Counted from the first letter of the stretch, positions 2,399-27,584 are shown. The stretch is DNA of 40,443 bases from an uncultured Gammaproteobacteria bacterium (GCA_964613075.1 CAZTFV010000001.1:23521-63963), one strand, 5' to 3'. Made by a program: numbers and translations. Notes: generated by a model not told the origin, from the sequence alone.

Positions 2399-3688
2399 CT
2401 ATCTCTTAAGGAATCCTTCGTAATTCCGCATCACCAGCTGTGCCTCAATTGCCTTAAACGTCTCAAGCACAACACTCACCACGATAAGAATACTGGTGCC
2501 GCCAAGAAGAAGCGTCTGTATACCGGTAATTGACTGGACAACTGTCGGCATAACTGCAATGATACCTAAGAATATCGCGCCGACCAAGGTGATACGCGTG
2601 AGAATATAGTTAAGGTATGCGCTTGTGGGACTACCTGGTCTGATACCCGGAATAAATCCGCCGTATTTTTGAATCTCTTCAGCGATTTTCTTCGGATTAA
2701 AAACCACAGCCGTATAGAAAAAGGTAAACCCGACGACCAACAGGAAATAAATAACATTATAAGGAATGTCTGTTGGCTGAAGCCACGTTGTCATAAATTG
2801 ACCAATACTGTTAAGGATAGCATTTTTCGAAACAAGTAAATAATTTCCCAGCAGGGACGGAAGAAGAACCAGTGATACGGCAAAAATGATTGGGATAACA
2901 CCCGCCTGATTAAGCCGAAGCGGTAAATGAGTCGATTGACCACCATACATCTTATTTCCACGCACCCGTTTTGCGTAATAAACAGTAATCTGCCGAACAG
3001 CTTCGTTGACAACAATAATCGCTGCAATAACCAAAATACCCATCGCCATAAATGCCAATAATCCCAATGCACTTTCTGCAGTTACTGTAGAGAGTGTCTG
3101 TCCTGCCACAACCGGCAGCCTTCCGACAATACCAGCAAAAATAAGAACCGAAATCCCATTTCCCACGCCCCGTTCAGTAATAAGCTCCCCAAGCCACACG
3201 AGAAGCATCGTCCCGGTAACCATGACGGCCAAAAAAGAAAGAAGCGATAGGGGATCAAGTATTCCTATAATGCCTTGGCTGCGAAGAAGTGCATACATAC
3301 CAATCGCCTGAAGAAACGCAAGCGGCACTGTCAGGATCCTTGTGTACTGGTTAATTTTCTTGCGTCCCTGCTCTCCCTCTTTTTGCATTTCTTCAAGTTT
3401 CGGAAAAACCATGGTCAAAAGTTGCAAAATAATTGAGGCATTAATATAAGGATTAAGACCAAGCGCCATAATGGAAAAATTTGCCAATGTCCCACCTGAA
3501 AAGATATCCAAGAGGCCAAGGAATTGATTCTGAGAAAAAAGGTTTTTTAATTGATTTACATTTACACCGGCAACAGGAATATGAGCAAAAATACGAAATA
3601 CCAGGAAAATAGCCAAGGTAAAAAGAATTTTCTTGCGAACCTCAGGGGTCCGGAAACTATTTCTCAAAACGGAAAAAAACTTGTTCAT
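2399..3688 (-). CDS. secY: preprotein translocase subunit SecY
   Basis: 429 aa polytopic membrane protein with SecY-typical segments ([27 protein letters not shown]). Follows rplO. Confidence 0.96.
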
Positions 3689-4137
3689 GGAGTTGAATCG
3701 TATGCAACGCTTCCCCCGGCTTTTTCAATCTTCTTAGCGGCCTGCTTTGATACTGCCAACCTCACCTGAAGCGGTACAGTCAGCTCGCCATCACCGAGGA
3801 TTTTTACACCATACGTTTTCGCATCTTCTTCTGATACAATCCGATGTTTAACAAGCGCTTGGACATCAACAACGCTGTTTTTCGGCAGGAGATTAAGCGC
3901 CTTTACATTAATAATAACAGGTGTTGGCTTAAATACTTTGTTTTTTCCTTTCCCTCTGTGAAACGGGAGGCGTTTTATCAACGGCAAAGCGCCTCCTTCA
4001 AAGGAAAGAGGGATGCTGGAACGCGCCTTTTGTCCTTTTGTACCCCGCCCGGCAGTCTTTCCCCGACCGCTTCCATGTCCTTGCCCGAGTCTTCTTCCTT
4101 GGCGCTTGGTAATTTTTTTCATATGTGCTAAATTCAT
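3685..4137 (-). CDS. rplO: 50S ribosomal protein L15
   Basis: 150 aa with a glycine/arginine-rich N-terminus ([25 protein letters not shown]). Operon position fits. Confidence 0.95.
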
Positions 4138-4140
4138 AAC

Positions 4141-4650
4141 TCAAGCACCCTTCCCTTCCCGCGACTTCTCAGCTTTCTCTCTTGTATAGCGATCCTCAAG
4201 AATCCGAAGCGCCGCAAGCGTTGCCAATACGTTACTGGCCTGATTACTCGTACCCAAAACTTTTGATGATACGTTCGTAATCCCTGCTGCTGACACAACG
4301 CTTCGTACTGCTCCTCCTGCGATAATACCGCTTCCGGGAGGTGCCGGCTTAAGCATAACTCGTGCCGCACCCACCTTGACATCAACCCGGTAGGGAATCG
4401 TACCATTGACAATAGGAGCATGCACCAAATGCTTACGTGCAAGTAAAATCCCTTTCCTGATTGCCGAGGAGACATCAGGCGCTTTCCCCAAACCTACCCC
4501 TACTCGTCCTTTCTTATCACCCACAACCGTCAGAGCGGAAAAGCCGATCTTATTCCCGCCTTTCGTTTTTTTCGAAACTCGATTAATCTTTACCACCTGC
4601 TCTGAAAATTCATCTCGTGGCTTACCAGGATCAAATTGCATTCTTGCCAT
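4141..4650 (-). CDS. rpsE: 30S ribosomal protein S5
   Basis: 169 aa, [34 protein letters not shown]. It directly abuts rplO (3-nt gap), so no L30 gene lies between them. Confidence 0.96.
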
Positions 4651-21117: not shown

Positions 21118-21124
21118 AATTGTT

Positions 21125-21249: not shown

Positions 21250-21549
21250 TTACTTTCCTCCATAGAGATTTTCATGTGTCCCAAGCATATGAAAGATAAT
21301 AATTTTTTGCTTCCCTGTATGTTTTTCTTTAAATACTGCCCGCCAATCGTCTGTCACGTCAATACTTCTATATCCTGCAAGTTTTTCTCTCAATTGGTGG
21401 TTTCTAAGCGATGAATGATTGGAGTCTTCGAGAAACATCTCAAGAGTTTGTGCAAAAGCTGTTTTAATTTTTTTGTCTGCTTTTGAATATTGTTCTCTAA
21501 ATCTCGTCCCGTACTTTATCTCCGTTTGCATAGGAAGCGTTTGGGTCAT
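21250..21549 (-). CDS. type II toxin, RelE/ParE superfamily
   Basis: 99 aa. FREQYSKADKKIKTAFAQTLEMFLEDSNHSSLRNHQLREKLAGYRSIDVTDDWRAVFKE...IIIFHMLGTHENLY is the typical RelE/ParE-fold pattern. Lies downstream of, and overlapping, an RHH antitoxin gene. Confidence 0.8.
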   Translation of the reverse strand: MTQTLPMQTEIKYGTRFREQYSKADKKIKTAFAQTLEMFLEDSNHSSLRNHQLREKLAGYRSIDVTDDWRAVFKEKHTGKQKIIIFHMLGTHENLYGGK

Positions 21550-21817
21550 CTAGCCAGGCTATTGCATCTTTTGCATTCGTAAAAGTGGGTGACACTTTCC
21601 CAGCTTTTACATCCTCCTCTGATTTTCTCAGTGATTCAATCATATATTCATTTGGTTCCTCCATTTCAGCACTAAAGGTGATAGTTCTTGTCCTGCTGAA
21701 TTGTTTTAAGAACCCCTTGATGATGACGCTTAAGGGCATACCAAGCGCCTCAGCTGCCTCCTGCGCTTGTTTTTTCTCTTCCGGTTTTACTTTGATGTTT
21801 ATGATTGCTGTATCCAT
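21497..21817 (-). CDS. type II antitoxin, RelB/DinJ (ribbon-helix-helix) family
   Basis: 106 aa. The N-terminus INIKVKPEEKKQAQEAAEALGMPLSVIIKGFLKQF is RHH-like. It is paired with the toxin. Confidence 0.78.
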   Translation of the reverse strand: MDTAIINIKVKPEEKKQAQEAAEALGMPLSVIIKGFLKQFSRTRTITFSAEMEEPNEYMIESLRKSEEDVKAGKVSPTFTNAKDAIAWLDDPNASYANGDKVRDEI

Positions 21818-21858: not shown

Positions 21859-22066
21859 GGTTTTGTAGGGAATAAGTGTACTGCCATAGGAACTCTCGGT
21901 TGTCGCTGTTTTGGGAAATCTCAGTTGACGTAAATATATTCGAACGAAAACTGAAATTTTATGAATTACTATTTCAGAGACAGTTAAATTATCCTTATAA
22001 GGCAGCTAAAACGCTTTAGAGCATGTTTTAATTGTCAAGCTGAATAGCTCTTTCATATAAGTCTAA

Positions 22067-22109
22067 TTGCGACAGTTGAGACTTCTCATTTTGCGACAAT
22101 TGAGATTTC
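22067..22109 (+). promoter_or_regulatory. two direct repeats (TTGCGACArTTGAGAyTTC) with 24-bp period just upstream of the first GC-rich cassette
   Basis: 22067-22085 ttgcgacagttgagacttc and 22091-22109 ttgcgacaattgagatttc are 17/19 identical. A TTGTCA-N17/18-(C)ATATAAG promoter-like string lies at 22032-22062. Confidence 0.4.
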
Positions 22110-22132
22110 CGTTCACACTAGAATCTCCCTAC

Positions 22133-22594
22133 ATGACCGAAGCCGCCAGACCGTTAGACCAGGACCAAGCAAGCCTTGCTGCCTCCTGGGATATGTCCGC
22201 TCTCTCATGGTCGCTGGATGTCGCGGCCGAGGCCCGCATCGACGTCGCCCACGGCGAGGGTGTCGCTTACCGCCTCGGCCCCGGGCCGGGGACGCTCCTC
22301 GAGCTCTTCCCCGCCACGGGAACGGTCCGACTCACCGGGCAAGACGTGCAGCTGACCCTGTTTCGCCAGGACCCGCCCCGGCTCGCGGACGAAGGCCTGG
22401 TCTTCGAGCTTGCCACCGAGCCCCGCCGGCGCTGGCTCTCCGTCTCCCCCACCACCGGCGAGGTCTTGCTCTTCTACGACCCATCGGTCGGAGAAGCCGT
22501 CTGCGCCCCGGAAACGGCCCAGGACGCGTCGGAACCAGCCGAACGCCCCAAACCTCTGCACTGTAAATTTGCAAAATTTTGTTTAAAAATTTAG
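22133..22594 (+). CDS. hypothetical protein, cassette 0 (high-GC codon usage)
   Basis: The ATG at 22133 coincides with the AT-to-GC transition. Third codon positions are almost all G/C (gcc gcc ... gtc gcg gcc gag gcc cgc atc gac). The frame only closes at a TAG inside repeat A (22592-22594). No family recognised. Confidence 0.6.
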   Translation: MTEAARPLDQDQASLAASWDMSALSWSLDVAAEARIDVAHGEGVAYRLGPGPGTLLELFPATGTVRLTGQDVQLTLFRQDPPRLADEGLVFELATEPRRRWLSVSPTTGEVLLFYDPSVGEAVCAPETAQDASEPAERPKPLHCKFAKFCLKI

Positions 22595-22670
22595 CCTCAA
22601 AAAAAGTGAAAAATACTAATTTTTCAAAATTCTGAGGCTAAAAAAGTTCAACTTTTTTTGCAAATTTACA
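22562..22670 (+). repeat. cassette-array repeat copy A (109 bp, diverged, AT-rich interior)
   Basis: TGTAAATTTGCA...TGCAAATTTACA termini plus the inner boxes TTAGCCTCA (22591-22599) and TGAGGCTAA (22633-22641). Confidence 0.85.
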
Positions 22671-22986
22671 AGTTCCATGACGAGTTGCTCAAACGTTCCC
22701 ATTCCTTGCGTCCTCTCACAACTCGTTCCGCGCCAGGGTGGCTGGCCGGGCAGCCAGAGCGCTGGCCGGGGCTTGCGGTCAGTTCGCGAAGCCGACCCGG
22801 ACGAGGGAAGGAACCACAGGGGGCCCGAGCTGTCAAGAGGTATTGACGAATCCTGCAATCACTTGTTGCCAAAAACGCAACTAGATGTTGCAATTTCCGC
22901 AACCGGGTGGTAAGATCGACTTGGGTATGAGGGAGAGGGAAGGAGTAGGCGACATGCCGTTTCGGCACCAGCGATCAGATCCCCGG

Positions 22987-23283
22987 TCAGCGGCCACCGA
23001 GGCCGTGGTGGGGGTTGGTCTGGCCCCAGGTCTGAAACTCGCGCCGGAAGCGCAGGCGCTCTTCAACGGTGGGGTAAATTGGAGCCTGGCGGAACTTGAT
23101 CGACTCGTCGACCTCAAAGCGAGGAAGGGCGATCAAACCGCCATCGACGTTTCGCCCTGCACTCACGACGACCACCTGGTTCCCGGCAATCCTGATACGC
23201 ACGAAAGGCCAGGATAGCATTCTATGCACACCAGAGAACTGGAGGGAAACGGCAACGAGCCCATGAAGAGCGGGTATCGGCAT
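22987..23283 (-). CDS. hypothetical protein, cassette 1 (strand assignment tentative)
   Basis: 98-aa ORF. My hand count over the region shared with the antisense ORF 22885..23217 gives GC1/GC2/GC3 of about 66/47/75% for the minus frame. The plus frame gives 75/47/66%. GC3>GC1>GC2 is expected of a real high-GC gene and favours minus. No good SD is present. The start could instead be the internal MLSWPF. Confidence 0.4.
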   Translation of the reverse strand: MPIPALHGLVAVSLQFSGVHRMLSWPFVRIRIAGNQVVVVSAGRNVDGGLIALPRFEVDESIKFRQAPIYPTVEERLRFRREFQTWGQTNPHHGLGGR

Positions 23284-23383
23284 GCTCCATCACGATGAGA
23301 GAGCGAGGAGACGGATCAGACATGTCCCTTCCAAACGACGACCCGTCGCCTGATCAGCCAATGATGGCGATACGGCTGAGGAT

Positions 23384-23485
23384 TGTAAGTTTGCACGATT
23401 TTCTTTGCACGAATTAGCCTCACATGATCAAACGCTTTGCAAAGTTTGAGGCTGAGATATGCAAAATAGTTCGTGCAAACTTACA
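23384..23485 (+). repeat. cassette-array repeat copy B (102 bp, consensus)
   Basis: tgtaagtttgcacgattttctttgcacgaattagcctcacatgatcaaacgctttgcaaagtttgaggctgagatatgcaaaatagttcgtgcaaacttaca. Confidence 0.95.
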
Positions 23486-23578
23486 ATTCTACACCCTGAC
23501 CCCCTTTCGAGACACCATCTAAGACCGCTGAGCAGCGCCGGCGGGTGGACCTCAGCGCGCGTACCAGGCGTACCCCTT

Positions 23579-23968
23579 CTACCGCGCCCGGCGCGGGGGC
23601 AACGGCCGGCTGCCCGCCTCCGCGCATGGCTCGCGCGGAGCGAGCGCGGGCGCATGAAGGCGATCGACCTCTCTGATCAAGGCACGTAATTGGTCAACGG
23701 TTTCCAATAATCGCAGGCCATCGCTGAAGTTCTCGTCTCCGGCCATCACGTATTCCATCCCTTCTGGAACAGTGCTTTGGAGGTCGACCATATTCTCGTA
23801 CTGCTCTCCAGCTCGTGCCAAAACCCGAACGTCAACACCGCTCATGGCCGCAGCATATCTGAATATAATCGAGTCCTCACCCGTCGATACGAGGATCGTC
23901 ACTGGCCCCTTGGTCGCTTCTTGTTCATTCTCTAGTAGAGACAGGAGCCGGTTCTTTTCGGCGTTCAT
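23579..23968 (-). CDS. hypothetical protein, cassette 2
   Basis: 129 aa. A strong SD, AAGGAGGTGA (23985->23976), lies 7 nt upstream of the ATG at 23968. A TATAAT box and the palindrome GTGTATTATACAC (24032-24044) are upstream. No family recognised. Confidence 0.65.
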   Translation of the reverse strand: MNAEKNRLLSLLENEQEATKGPVTILVSTGEDSIIFRYAAAMSGVDVRVLARAGEQYENMVDLQSTVPEGMEYVMAGDENFSDGLRLLETVDQLRALIREVDRLHAPALAPREPCAEAGSRPLPPRRAR

Positions 23969-24214
23969 CTCTTCCTCACCTCCTTTCCGGGCAGGTCAGG
24001 CGATCGCGTCGGCAACGCACAGATCGTCCGAGTGTATTATACACTTTATGTCAACACGATCGCGGCGCGGCGGCAGGAGTTGCGGCCCCGGAGACGCGGC
24101 GGCGCTCCGTGCAGCCAGGCGGCAGCAAGGCGAGACCATGAGACTCCCTCCCCTTCCCCTCCTGGTGCCGACTGCGCCGACGGGACGGTGCGCCGGGTCG
24201 GCGAGCCGTTTGCG

Positions 24215-24316
24215 TGTAAGTTTGCACGAACTATTTTGCATATCTCAGCCTCAAACTTTGCAAAGCGTTTGATCATGTGAGGCTAATTCGTGCAAAGAAA
24301 ATCGTGCAAACTTACA
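24215..24316 (-). repeat. cassette-array repeat copy C (102 bp, consensus, reverse orientation)
   Basis: By my reading, the reverse complement of 24215-24316 is identical to copies B, D and E. Confidence 0.95.
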
Positions 24317-24653
24317 ACTCTCGGCATCGAACTGGAACAGGAAAGGCCTGACGAATCGGTATCCGTCCATCCTGTCGCTCTCTCTGGGCTTCCAAGAGGC
24401 GAAACAACCAAAAGCTGACAAATCCGGGTCAAGTGCCGGAAGGATACTTGATCCCGTATATTGGCACTTCCCCCGCTGCGTTCCGTGATCCTCCCCTCGA
24501 CCAGCGGCACGGCGGTAGTCGAGCAGCACAACGAGTTGGTCACCGGCCGAGTGATCCGTTCGGGAGGGGGCGGATCGGAACGAGAGCTGGCGACACACTT
24601 CATCTTCACCACAATTTGACAATTTACTCAATTTATGATATACGACATATGAT

Positions 24654-25055
24654 ATGGATATAGAAGCAAAATTTGTTTCAAATAGACTAGATTTCAAATC
24701 ATTTCTCTATCATCACCATGAAGCTATTCCGAGAATCCCTGAACAACCTTCCGCTCACACCGCGCCGGAGGGTGGAGGTCGTGGCGAGGCGCGCTCCCCT
24801 CAGCCGGAGCGAGTAACTGATCCCGTGGCCAATCCGGATCGAGCTCGGCTGGAGGCGTTCCTGACCCCGGGGGTGGTAAGCGGTACTGTTGAGTGGGAAA
24901 CGACAATGGGGAGCTATGAAATTGACTTTGATACTCGAGATGAACCCGGAAACCCATCAAAGTACTTTTATCCGAAAGATCAGATAGTTTTCGATAATAG
25001 TTTATATTCATCTCGCCATCAATCTGATTTATCACAACGTCAACTAGGTGAGTAA
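24654..25055 (+). CDS. hypothetical protein, cassette 3 (weak call)
   Basis: 133-aa ORF downstream of an AT-rich promoter-like stretch (TTGACA in the 24610s, then a 17-nt spacer, then TATACG). The C-terminal half (SYEIDFDTRDEPGNPSKYFYPKDQIVFDNSLY) looks protein-like. The N-terminal half has mixed composition. Confidence 0.3.
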   Translation: MDIEAKFVSNRLDFKSFLYHHHEAIPRIPEQPSAHTAPEGGGRGEARSPQPERVTDPVANPDRARLEAFLTPGVVSGTVEWETTMGSYEIDFDTRDEPGNPSKYFYPKDQIVFDNSLYSSRHQSDLSQRQLGE

Positions 25056-25259
25056 TCCCGCGAGCACCGCGTGTTCCCACCCCGTCATTCGGTTAATCAT
25101 CGGATCCCGATTAGCTCCGGGCTGGTCGTCTAGCACCTGTTTGTGGACGAACTAGCCATTACCCGGCGCAGAAGGGGTCTTGGTTCCCGTAACGGCCCTT
25201 CTCGCTATCATCTTCCCTAAATTCACGCTTATTCGTCAATGTTTGCGGTTCCAAGTAAG

Positions 25260-25361
25260 TGTAAGTTTGCACGATTTTCTTTGCACGAATTAGCCTCACA
25301 TGATCAAACGCTTTGCAAAGTTTGAGGCTGAGATATGCAAAATAGTTCGTGCAAACTTACA
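25260..25361 (+). repeat. cassette-array repeat copy D (102 bp, consensus)
   Basis: Identical to copy B. Confidence 0.95.
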
Positions 25362-25675
25362 CAACGCTAAGGAACAGAACTATCTGCTCTACCTGGCGGG
25401 CCGGCTCCCGCCGCCGCTCTCAAGACTCCAGTTAACCATGGATGAACTGGGGTATGTCTTCGATATGGTTGGCATTCTCATAGATAATTTGCGTTTAAGG
25501 TATAAATCTAAAGATATTTAACGAAACTACAATCAATGAAAAGATTGACAAATTAGTCAACACTGTGCTACCCTCCACGAGGGGTCGGCGTCATTGACCT
25601 GCTGACCAAGCCGTTCCTAATCCAACCGTGTCACGTCAAGGGGGCACCCGCCTGACCAGACCTGGAGGAGACAGG

Positions 25676-26128
25676 ATGGAGCCACAGCAGGAAGGACAGA
25701 CGACCACCAGCACGATGAGGCAACCAGAGACCAGCCCGGACGGCTCCGTTGCCGGTTCGGACCTTACCCGCTTATCCAAACGGCTCAATACTCGCCGCCG
25801 TACGGCGGCGAAGGAGCAGATCGAGGGCGTGTTCACGCAGTATCTGCAGGAGGTGCAGGCGCTGGGCATCGTCTCTGAGATCCTGGTCGGGTCCAAAGCC
25901 CACGCGCCAGGCGCTTACCTCTGGAACGTGTTCGCCGAAGACTTCCGCGTGGAGCAGTGGGCCCGTCCCTCGTTTGCCGAGCTCAACCGGCTCACCTACC
26001 GTCTCGAGCAGGACTTACCCAAGGGCCTCTCGCTTCGCATCGCCCACGTGAACCCTTGCGACCTCGCCCAGGTCCGAGAGCGCTGTGACCAACAGCAGAT
26101 CGAGACCGAGCTCATCCCCCTGCGCTGA
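25676..26128 (+). CDS. hypothetical protein, cassette 4
   Basis: 150 aa from the ATG at 25676, preceded by GGAGGAG with a 5-nt gap. GC3 is high throughout. The palindrome TTGACaaattaGTCAA (25545-25560) lies upstream. The stop is 16 nt before repeat E. No family recognised. Confidence 0.65.
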   Translation: MEPQQEGQTTTSTMRQPETSPDGSVAGSDLTRLSKRLNTRRRTAAKEQIEGVFTQYLQEVQALGIVSEILVGSKAHAPGAYLWNVFAEDFRVEQWARPSFAELNRLTYRLEQDLPKGLSLRIAHVNPCDLAQVRERCDQQQIETELIPLR

Positions 26129-26144
26129 TGATGGACGCCCTCGT

Positions 26145-26246
26145 TGTAAGTTTGCACGATTTTCTTTGCACGAATTAGCCTCACATGATCAAACGCTTTG
26201 CAAAGTTTGAGGCTGAGATATGCAAAATAGTTCGTGCAAACTTACA
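26145..26246 (+). repeat. cassette-array repeat copy E (102 bp, consensus)
   Basis: Identical to copy B. Confidence 0.95.
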
Positions 26247-26650
26247 CAGTCATTGCTCATTATTTTCTCAGATGCTTCCAAGGCCTTGCGTTCTATCTCG
26301 TCATCATCTTCGTCGTCATCATCACCGGCAAATTCTTCGAACGAGAGATCCATCTTCATGTTGTCGGTTTCCCAAGATCTTCCGCTGAAGCTGCGAAGTG
26401 CGCGTGGGGTATCGGAATAGGAAGAGGCCATCTCCGTCATGATCAGAGAAAGCCTCCACGTCATTTGTTCATAGTATCGAGCCGGAGAAAATTCCATGAG
26501 GTTCGAGTAGGCGAGACGATGTCCAAACATCTTTCGTATGTCGTACTCCATCGTTCTTGTTTCTACCCACTCCAAAATCTGATCGTTGGTCAGAGAGTGA
26601 TTGTTGGTCACAAATTCGACCAGATCGTCACATCGGTCCTTGCTCGCCAT
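26189..26650 (-). CDS. hypothetical acidic protein, cassette 5
   Basis: The ATG at 26650 (MASKDRCDDLVEF...) lies 2 nt from repeat F. There is a DDDDEDDDE run near the C-terminus. The frame closes only inside repeat E, adding the tail SLHELFCISQPQTLQSV. No family recognised. Confidence 0.6.
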   Translation of the reverse strand: MASKDRCDDLVEFVTNNHSLTNDQILEWVETRTMEYDIRKMFGHRLAYSNLMEFSPARYYEQMTWRLSLIMTEMASSYSDTPRALRSFSGRSWETDNMKMDLSFEEFAGDDDDEDDDEIERKALEASEKIMSNDCVSLHELFCISQPQTLQSV

Positions 26651-26652
26651 GG

Positions 26653-26764
26653 TGTAAGTTTGCAACGAAATTTTACACCTAAAGTTGCAAGAATTTTACT
26701 GTCTTAGCCTCAAAAGTGTAAAATTCCTGCAAATAAAACAGTAAAATAATCGTGCAAATTTACA
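26653..26764 (-). repeat. cassette-array repeat copy F (112 bp, diverged; orientation tentative)
   Basis: It has the termini TGTAAGTTTGCA...CGTGCAAATTTACA. Its reverse complement begins tgtaaatttgcacgatt, matching 16/17 of the consensus left arm. It carries only one inner box (ttagcctca at 26704-26712). Confidence 0.75.
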
Positions 26765-27035
26765 CTTACACGAGCCAGACGAAGCAGAATGGGGAAAAGG
26801 TTTTAAAACAAGGAGGAAAAACTACAGTATCTTGCACCTGACACGATCGATACCATTCAAGAGACTATCGAAGCCGGTAAAGAACCGAGAAAGACAACTG
26901 AGGTACCAGTATACCAATTTCCTTCTTAGACTACCTCATCTATCACCTATTTTATTGCCTCTCTTTTTTTGACAAAAAGTCCCAAACCTCATAGACTGGA
27001 CTTAGGCCTATCAATTCACATAGGTCTTTATTGCT

Positions 27036-27584
27036 ATGGCAACACACAATGCAATCAATCTCGTACGGGGACAAGACAAAAGATTTTTTGACAAACTTAT
27101 CGGTTGGGCATTCACCGTCGGACGGGTACTTGTCATCTTCACCGAGTCAATCGCCCTGATGGCATTTCTCTATCGCTTCTCATTAGATTACCGGCTCATT
27201 GATCTTCGCGATGAAATAAAAGACAGGCAAACAATCGTCTCGCTCCTCAAAGAAAGTGAAGCCACGTATCGCAACCTGCAAGCTCGTCTTGCCTACGCTT
27301 CACAAATAGAAAAGCAAAAAGAGCAAACGCCAAAAACCCTTGCCGATCTTGTAAAAATGGCAACCGGCAAACTCGTCTTCAATAGTCTGACAGTGAACCA
27401 AAATACCATCCAGATAGATGCCAACGCGCCATCAGTAAGTAGTCTGAGTAGCTTTATCAACCAACTTAAAAAATATCCGACTGTTAAGACAGTCAGTATC
27501 GACAGAATTGAAAATAAAGGCTCAATCGCAACGATTAACATTTCAATCACGGCAACATTGGAAAATGCCGACACTGCCAAATGA
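27036..27584 (+). CDS. pilN: type IV pilus assembly protein PilN-like
   Basis: 182 aa with a short cytoplasmic N-terminus, a single TM (VGRVLVIFTESIALMAFLY), a coiled-coil and a C-terminal alpha/beta domain. It is followed by a PilO-like gene with a 4-nt overlap. Confidence 0.6.
   Translation: MATHNAINLVRGQDKRFFDKLIGWAFTVGRVLVIFTESIALMAFLYRFSLDYRLIDLRDEIKDRQTIVSLLKESEATYRNLQARLAYASQIEKQKEQTPKTLADLVKMATGKLVFNSLTVNQNTIQIDANAPSVSSLSSFINQLKKYPTVKTVSIDRIENKGSIATINISITATLENADTAK

Follow-up and report, generated by a model that had tools for sequence, protein, structure and literature searches.

A probable array of IS21-family transposon ends around foreign GC-rich DNA between the EF-G and pilN genes of a CPR-type bacterium

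Introduction

Insertion sequences (ISs) of the IS21 family have two direct repeats at each end and a terminal CA; their insertion produces 5-bp target duplications, measured for IS5376, and the transposase IstA is also able to pair left with left ends or right with right ends (PMC10122671). Cargo that lacks a transposase gene and is flanked by IS ends is defined as a mobile insertion cassette (PMC3129680). An arrangement that fits this definition is found in a 40,443-nt stretch of bacterial DNA (CAZTFV010000001.1:23521-63963), called the window throughout and meant at its whole length; statements on host-side genes and units cover these 40 kb. Between the genes for elongation factor G (EF-G) and pilN, two housekeeping genes, six segments of largely GC-rich cargo (c0 to c5) alternate with six palindromic repeat units (R0 to R5). 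On balance we consider it likely, though far from secure, that the region is an array of non-autonomous IS21-family ends around foreign GC-rich DNA, situated at an EF-G/pilN insertion hot spot in a bacterium of CPR (candidate phyla radiation) type.

The locus resembles IS21 elements, their MITEs (miniature inverted-repeat transposable elements) and mobile insertion cassettes in several ways. Units of this family stand after istB in three elements, have TG...CA termini and repeated subterminal sites, and are of MITE-like size. Because related IS21-type elements carry passenger genes, a toxin-antitoxin (TA) pair in contig L045 and Fic-MerR in contig L036, they are transporter ISs in the sense of PMC3129680. 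The departures from the IS21 family are equally clear. A whole palindromic unit with two opposed ends, not a simple inverted repeat, occupies the IS end; the array is without target duplications; the site spacing is 14 nt and not 23 bp; and six units are chained, one being shared by neighbouring segments, around cargo that is compositionally foreign.

Integrons and clusters of attC sites lacking integron-integrases (CALINs) have a comparable layout of short, mostly one-gene segments and near-identical, foldable imperfect palindromes of ~100 nt, and as in a CALIN no integrase is nearby. The integron-like appearance of one unit per junction is real, though the features that define an integron fail. 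No IntI with an attI was found beside the array, no ORF (open reading frame) in the flanks has an integrase domain, and the left flank consists of RelB/YafQ and then EF-G. Judged by core motif, attC cores are absent, and the units are not all in one orientation (R2 is inverted). The units also fall into three subtypes that remain intact at the junctions, the segments have their own promoters, and the enzyme system with which the units are associated is a DDE transposase and not a tyrosine recombinase. Since the array has an integron-like layout without being an integron, it is a useful warning for automated cassette or CALIN calls. A CRISPR array was considered and rejected as well: the repeats measure 102-112 nt as against 23-50, the "spacers" would be 406-943 nt as against 25-50, and there are no cas genes and no Rfam match.

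Compound transposons and IS26 or IS1 arrays likewise have identical IS-derived repeats, in both orientations, that bracket unrelated DNA of differing origins, and the flanks in IS26/IS1 arrays also lack target duplications after secondary rearrangement. In compound transposons, however, the repeated element is a complete IS rather than a 102-nt end-only unit, and unlike the IS26/IS1 resistance regions this array lies in a reduced CPR-type genome with a cargo of orphan genes. The genomic islands of Patescibacteria (PMC12455944) are similarly horizontally acquired DNA in a streamlined CPR genome, told by composition. That survey describes transfers mostly within the phylum, and a term search of it returned no mention of transposases or insertion sequences; the repeat-delimited modular build and the GC-rich source distinguish the present locus from the islands as described there. 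In the literature on integrons, IS21 or this repeat in Patescibacteria we found no description of such an array. We regard it as a variant of MITE, mobile insertion cassette and compound transposon structures that is unusual in its chained layout, its two-faced end unit and its CPR-type host.

Results

An insertion between EF-G and pilN

The array lies within a 5.9-kb insertion. In a syntenic relative, represented by four assemblies from different samples (L046-L049), EF-G and pilN are divergent neighbours 209 nt apart; its EF-G belongs to the same 90% protein cluster, the order of EF-Tu, GH18, pilN/O and PMT is kept, and the TA pair, the unit and the GC-rich DNA are all absent from the EF-G/pilN spacer. 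Because the two genes are just 209 nt apart in this relative, the comparison indicates that window positions 21118 to ~26905, which comprise a TA pair and the array, are a lineage-specific insertion. The conserved pilN promoter sequence starts at ~26905.

Two further contigs carry IS21-type genes in the same spacer. L045 begins with half a unit, followed by an intact YgiT-type gene (132-356), a DUF4258/Phd pair and a conserved non-coding block, and has the order IstA-IstB-YafQ/RelB-pilN, with the YafQ/RelB pair, homologous to that of the window, adjoining istB. L001 consists of the conserved non-coding block, istB without istA, an R0-type unit and then pilN.

The absence of an L30 gene between the S5 and L15 genes is a hallmark of CPR bacteria. 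In the window (3685-4650) only 3 nt separate the genes for S5 and L15, and L30 is missing from between the two. The closest relatives of the IstB proteins are named Daviesbacteria, Kerfeldbacteria, Vogelbacteria and Patescibacteria, and assignment of the window's bacterium to the CPR/Patescibacteria is plausible on gene order and protein similarity.

Composition of the cargo

The window has a GC content of 44.5% overall and 43.2% without the array, and in 300-nt windows outside the array the standard deviation is 0.04 and the maximum 0.55. The segments are 406-943 nt long, ~0.4-0.9 kb each. Segment c0 (22133-22561, plus strand) has a GC content of 0.69, c1 (22671-23383, plus) 0.595, c2 (23486-24214, minus) 0.62, c4 (25362-26144, plus) 0.58 and c5 (26247-26652, minus) 0.48; c3 (24317-25259, plus; 0.52) is a mosaic in which the AT-richer middle holds the ORF. 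A preliminary description of the region had placed the switch to high GC exactly at the ATG at 22133. There is a sharp jump there, with counts going from 6-9 to 10-15 G+C per 20 nt, and its position is resolved to ~20 nt because it was measured in 20-nt steps. The three hand counts of that description, 46 of 60 for 22261-22320, 27 of 60 for 27061-27120 in pilN and 39 of 102 for the repeat, were exact on recount.

GC content at third codon positions (GC3) is 0.80 for the ORF in c0, 0.66 in c1, 0.65 in c2 and 0.81 in c4, as compared to 0.39-0.45 in 12 host genes. The claim that the confident cassette ORFs use G/C-ending codons almost exclusively was therefore overstated, the strong bias in these four ORFs amounting to 0.65-0.81, and it does not extend to the ORFs of c3 (0.38) and c5 (0.575). 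Tetranucleotide z-scores of the pooled c0-c4 correlate with those of the host at r = 0.09, whereas equal-size host chunks give 0.49-0.71; the signature closest to the pooled cassettes is that of a 65% GC contig that encodes the best c2 homologue (r = 0.51). Windowed GC, GC3 and tetranucleotide profiles all set the cargo apart from the host.

The cargo is thus compositionally foreign DNA, and its source is probably to be sought in GC-rich lineages. The proposal that it was captured from foreign high-GC donors agrees with these off-host profiles, with the placement of the c2 homologue and with the lack of the block in the syntenic relative. Because c5 and part of c3 are less GC-rich, several sources for the segments, as had been suggested from c5, are plausible.

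Coding content of the cargo

Most segments hold one small orphan gene with its own promoter, and c1, c2 and c4 resemble complete small genes with ribosome-binding sites and promoter-like sequences. The c1 ORF (22954-23217, plus strand) encodes 87 aa and has a ribosome-binding site and a promoter-like region upstream. The complete ORFs of c2 (23579-23968, minus; 129 aa) and c4 (25676-26128, plus; 150 aa) both have a ribosome-binding site, that of c4 together with a promoter-like TTGACA site. The c3 ORF (24654-25055, plus; 133 aa) is complete and has a promoter-like sequence; its ribosome-binding site is not obvious. The c0 ORF (22133-22594, plus) has its stop codon within R0 and may for this reason be truncated at its 3' end. 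The c5 ORF (26189-26650, minus) begins at a distance of 2 nt from R5, and its stop codon falls within R4. Two GTTGC-N7-GCAAC inverted repeats at 22843-22920, in the promoter-like region of c1, form a repressor-operator layout typical of mobile elements.

The c2 protein has two weak homologues among 1.84 billion representatives, the better with 38% identity and surrounded by SSB, HU and helix-turn-helix (HTH) genes on the 65% GC contig. Its AlphaFold2 (AF2) model (predicted local distance difference test score, pLDDT, 72) shows a confident small alpha/beta domain, for which no matching PDB fold was returned below E 0.1; the single-sequence model of the c4 protein (pLDDT 56) was too poor for a fold search. 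The c0 and c4 proteins retrieved only themselves from 5.8 billion protein clusters. Five cassette ORFs had no homologue in the searches run, of which that of the large protein collection covered c0 and c4 only. Scans of the six cassette proteins against Pfam, PHROGs, PADLOC and NCBIfam gave no accepted match, and a sub-threshold CARF match of c0 (E 0.0024) was treated as noise. Phage and plasmid collections had no match to the array (blastn) or to the concatenated cassette proteins (tblastn), and in tblastx of the array against all fetched loci the units alone matched. Exact-protein look-ups of c2, c4 and c5 found no other contig, which is uninformative, since several host genes were likewise missing from that source. 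Judged from its ORFs, the cargo is real coding DNA with orphan genes, and GC-rich lineages are its apparent origin.

The repeat units

Four of the six units, R1 (23384-23485), R2 (24215-24316), R3 (25260-25361) and R4 (26145-26246), are 102 nt long and 100% identical over this length, R2 alone being on the minus strand; this identity points to recent copying or gene conversion among them. R0 (22562-22670, plus strand, 109 nt) is a palindromic unit of an AT-rich subtype and R5 (26653-26764, plus, 112 nt) a unit of a third subtype; both are whole. R0 is 95% identical, in opposite orientation, to the istB-adjoining unit of L001, and R5 has 87% identity to a unit of L029, an unrelated contig; with R1-R4 the two share perfect identity over only ~12-15 nt. 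All six units of the window are inside the array (by chance, the terminal 15-mer would be matched 1.25 times), and no further copy was found in the remaining 35 kb.

Each unit is an imperfect palindrome with perfect terminal inverted repeats of 12-15 nt, TGTAAGTTTGCACGA ... TCGTGCAAACTTACA. The termini are TG...CA, the ends reading TGTAAGT... and ...ACTTACA, and each arm has a second TTTGCA site 14 nt inward. The interior consists of a stem, AGCCTCA/TGAGGCT, and of TTTGCAAA at the centre. In single-stranded form the units are predicted to fold much better than shuffled sequences (z -5 to -7; R1, -24.6 kcal/mol, z -5.3). Because the blocks of the unit are conserved at the sequence level, they point to protein binding sites.

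Possible expression signals were noted at several units. R1-type units have an ATG (MQNSSCKLT...) that reads outward across the terminus (23459-23485, 26220-26246 and, on the minus strand, 24215-24241), R5 has a promoter-like TTTACA-18-TAAAAT directed at c5 (26693-26722, minus), and in L011 and L013 the ORFs beside the unit have their start inside it. On account of these outward ATGs, the R5 site and the ORF starts, the units may supply expression signals to adjoining DNA.

The unit family and IS21-type elements

A pattern scan of genome and metagenome collections placed the unit family in 15 further loci, among them L001, L003-L006, L010, L011, L013, L017-L019, L026, L029 and L030; L036-L038, fetched through IstB, add a subtype with TGTCAG termini. 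A whole unit begins 0 nt past the istB stop codon in L001, 23 nt past it in L019 and 8 nt past it in L036-L038. The IstB proteins of these elements have pairwise identities of only 42-66%, and the unit subtype varies with the element (TGTAAA, TGTAAG or TGTCAG termini). Contig L038 stops exactly at the outer end of its unit. The IstA of L019 scores 174.8 bits against the NCBIfam model NF033546 (IS21 family transposase), which has a curated cut-off of 160. The more distant IS21-like elements of CPR bacteria (L039-L044) are without the unit.

The layout of the unit agrees with published IS21 ends except in the site spacing. By this analogy the unit has the look of two IS21-like ends, one left and one right, placed back to back in the manner of a MITE, and in this clade it appears also to form the end of the autonomous element. 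Single units occur in contigs of 51-63% GC, among them contigs binned to the Chloroflexota (Ktedonobacteraceae and Thermomicrobia) and a plasmid-like stretch with ArdC; the units there have a GC content of 0.29-0.35. Because the unit is AT-rich everywhere and stands directly after istB, it is best seen as a transposon end with a composition of its own rather than as a recombination site matched to the host, and comparison across these contigs indicates that its AT-richness belongs to the element and not to the CPR host. The preliminary description had taken the repeats to match the host in composition, which is roughly true of R1-R4 (GC 0.38) but not of R0 (0.21) or R5 (0.30), and to be supplied by or adapted to the host system, a view that is not supported, given the AT-rich units in GC-rich contigs and next to istB.

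Candidates that shared only the 12-nt termini were dropped as non-family: L032, from a first scan of viral contigs, and L002, L007-L009, L012, L015, L016, L020, L021, L023-L025, L027 and L028. A second viral-contig scan for the unit was empty. L014, L022 and L031 are weak, divergent matches to the unit profile (E 6.6e-5 to 6e-3) and were not used as evidence for the family; L031 has two tandem units 10 nt apart (300-497).

Paired or polymorphic units were seen at other loci. In L013 (1792-2902) two units 920 nt apart surround a fragment that is IS701-like by eye, without a Pfam match, and in L011 (43-1693) two identical units 1550 nt apart surround a truncated SSB gene. L017 (1288-1475) and L018 (1-188), from one sample, agree over a unit and over flanks of 25 and 62 nt. 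Beyond this the two part, one side leading into an epoxide hydrolase gene and the other into an IS256-family transposase, so that the unit has a polymorphic neighbourhood in this GC-rich population.

IS21-like elements in CPR-type contigs also have a third gene directly upstream of istA, which encodes Fic and MerR in L036 (3-878), ParB_N in L042 (304-1230) and DndB in L043 (209-1297). IS21-like contigs tend to break just upstream of this third gene.

Breakpoints and assembly integrity

Target duplications were sought by eye, including the combinations of flanks expected after inversion; the outer flanks of R1 and R2 agree at 6/9, which was put down to chance. Because IS21-family insertion makes duplications and none is present, the unit copies are not simple insertions. 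Several genes end at units. The SSB gene of L011 lacks its first 39 profile positions at the unit, with the missing half not found across it; an rve transposase ends at the unit in L003; a YgiT-type gene of the window is cut near R5; and in c0 and c5 the ORF has no stop codon before it enters a unit. Units mark breakpoints rather than clean insertions.

Independent contigs cover the outer parts of the array. L034, from another run, contains the TA genes, the AT-rich leader to the left of c0, c0 and the start of R0 at 99.9% identity, and L033 starts inside R5 and continues into pilN at 100% identity. Independent Logan assemblies likewise contain the c3 protein. Mis-joining at c1 and c5 is unlikely, since each touches a unit of a subtype strongly unlike the R1 type.

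Discussion

We propose a hypothetical model that starts from four observations: the block is inserted, its units are tied to IS21-family elements, its cargo is foreign, and the units are AT-rich in whichever host they occur. Because every unit presents an end in each direction, any two neighbours would bracket a segment, which IstA and IstB supplied in trans could move, invert or delete in the manner of a mobile insertion cassette or compound transposon. The GC-rich segments would have arrived flanked by units, their source being GC-rich replicons in which this unit family is present, and the array would have been built as the transposase rearranged them through adjacent events or as units recombined with one another. 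Later adjacent deletions and inversions or unit recombination would also have removed target duplications and truncated genes, and could at the same time account for the single unit at each junction and the identity of R1-R4.

A number of facts weigh against this model. No target duplication surrounds any unit, either R0-R5 or those at other loci. The TTTGCA sites in an arm are 14 nt apart, as against the 23 bp reported for IS5376. The array has no transposase gene and istA and istB are absent from the window; among the contigs collected we recovered neither a complete autonomous element with a unit at both ends, the left unit end being deduced from the half unit in L045, nor a donor contig with a unit-flanked cassette. 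The even segment sizes and the single gene per segment are more ordered than random transposon damage would be. The order and orientation of c2-c4, between identical repeats, come from a single assembly.

An alternative history begins with a single transfer of a GC-rich island of ~4 kb, into which four R1-type MITEs were subsequently inserted. The high GC common to c0-c4 would follow from this, the units do act as MITE-like IS21 derivatives, and identity of R1-R4 is expected after a recent burst. However, none of the four copies has a target duplication, no ORF is split by a unit, GC changes in steps at the units from segment to segment (0.69 to 0.48), R0 and R5 are of other subtypes with relatives in low-GC contigs, and no copy is present in the other 35 kb of host DNA, which is AT-richer and arguably more IS21-friendly. 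We regard an island with a later MITE burst as rather unlikely. RecA-dependent recombination, with unit-bearing DNA, perhaps acquired by natural transformation, being integrated at resident units and no transposase acting here, would account for the one unit per junction, the 100% identity of R1-R4 over 102 nt, the lack of target duplications and the lack of istAB in the window, and type IV pilus genes do adjoin the array. The proximity of the pilus genes merely reflects the ancestral spacer, however; the perfect identity of R0 and R5 to R1-R4 is too short for such exchange at the array edges, the inverted R2 is unexplained, and the left edge of c0 is without a unit. This origin is improbable.

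It is formally conceivable that the link to IS21 is secondary and that the units are recombination sites of an integron-like platform, on which a site-specific recombinase would act on circular one-unit cassettes. Exactly one unit between neighbours, segments of 0.4-0.9 kb with mostly one small gene, ~100-nt imperfect palindromes with predicted single-stranded hairpins (z -5 to -7), units that are identical within the array as in chromosomal integrons, and the missing target duplications are all in its favour. No integrase or other recombinase is found beside the array or among the ORFs scanned, though, the attC cores RYYYAAC and GTTRRRY are absent, R2 is inverted, the segments have their own promoters and the units follow istB in three elements. 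R0, R1-R4 and R5 are moreover whole subtypes and not hybrids, for which reason exchange appears to have occurred at unit ends and not inside them. We give this platform little credence. The preliminary description named a chimera as the finding that would overturn it, and an assembly artefact, in which GC-rich pieces of another organism with the same repeat were joined into a CPR contig, deserves mention because c2, c3 and c4 are flanked on both sides by identical 102-nt repeats that short-read assemblers resolve poorly, and because related units do exist in GC-rich genomes. A different-run assembly nevertheless extends from the TA genes through the leader and c0 into R0 with 99.9% identity, c1 lies between R0-type and R1-type units and c5 between R1-type and R5-type units, both outer types being seen in low-GC relatives, and six precise alternations are unlike a chimera. 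An artefact of this kind is therefore very unlikely, above all for the outer parts, with the order of c2-c4 resting on one assembly.

If the array of non-autonomous IS21-family ends is accepted, the locus would represent a concrete vehicle for cross-phylum transfer: IS21-type end units occur in CPR-type contigs of low GC as well as in GC-rich ones binned to the Chloroflexota, and GC-rich orphan genes with promoters of their own have filled a hot spot. The shared unit family, if it reflects physical contact, could be of use in matching uncultured CPR bacteria to hosts. A stronger version, to which we assign a low probability, is that IstA/IstB and the two-faced unit constitute a transposase-driven gene-capture platform, an analogue of the integron that collects small genes from GC-rich hosts such as the Chloroflexota, and that the third gene of the CPR relatives (ParB-, DndB- or Fic-type) would be part of it. 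Episymbiotic CPR bacteria would then stockpile and express such genes, and the shared unit family would point to the host. The preliminary description had speculated on a store of genes from a high-GC partner or its phages; no cassette matched a phage or plasmid record, and the searches run identified no donor. The units would be of high interest if they turned out to serve as a dedicated platform for capture or to mark the host of the CPR bacterium.

Other features of the inserted block

To the left of the array, the inserted block includes a gene for a YafQ/ParE-like toxin (21250..21549, minus strand; Pfam YafQ_toxin, E 1.3e-7) and one for its RelB-like antitoxin partner (21497..21817, minus; Pfam RelB, E 3.3e-6), the homologous pair of L045 being at 3774-4385. 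The AT-rich leader (21884..22113) appears to be a second MITE-like element, unrelated to the units, and its right end abuts c0. At each of its ends there are two sites of ~18 nt (GGAAnTCTCAnTTGTCGC) 24 nt apart and in inverted arrangement, an end layout of the IS21/Mu type. The leader element was seen only in the window and in its twin contig L034.

To the right, the 165 nt between R5 and the pilN promoter (26765..26929, plus strand) are what remains of an IS21-type element with passenger genes; they come from its left part, which is of the L045 type and has the same unit flank. At 26821-26929 this remnant contains the 3' third of a gene for a YgiT-type zinc-finger protein, an MqsA-like antitoxin, and the peptide encoded there matches residues 41-72 of the intact 74-aa L045 protein (E 2e-7); L001 keeps the last 7 codons only. 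Rfam and tRNA scans of the window were empty.

The conserved non-coding block upstream of istA (L045 1266-1480; L001 1-205) is relatively GC-rich and has been kept in L001 though istA is deleted there. An Rfam search with this block gave no match; the block may have a regulatory role in the element or represent a structured RNA.

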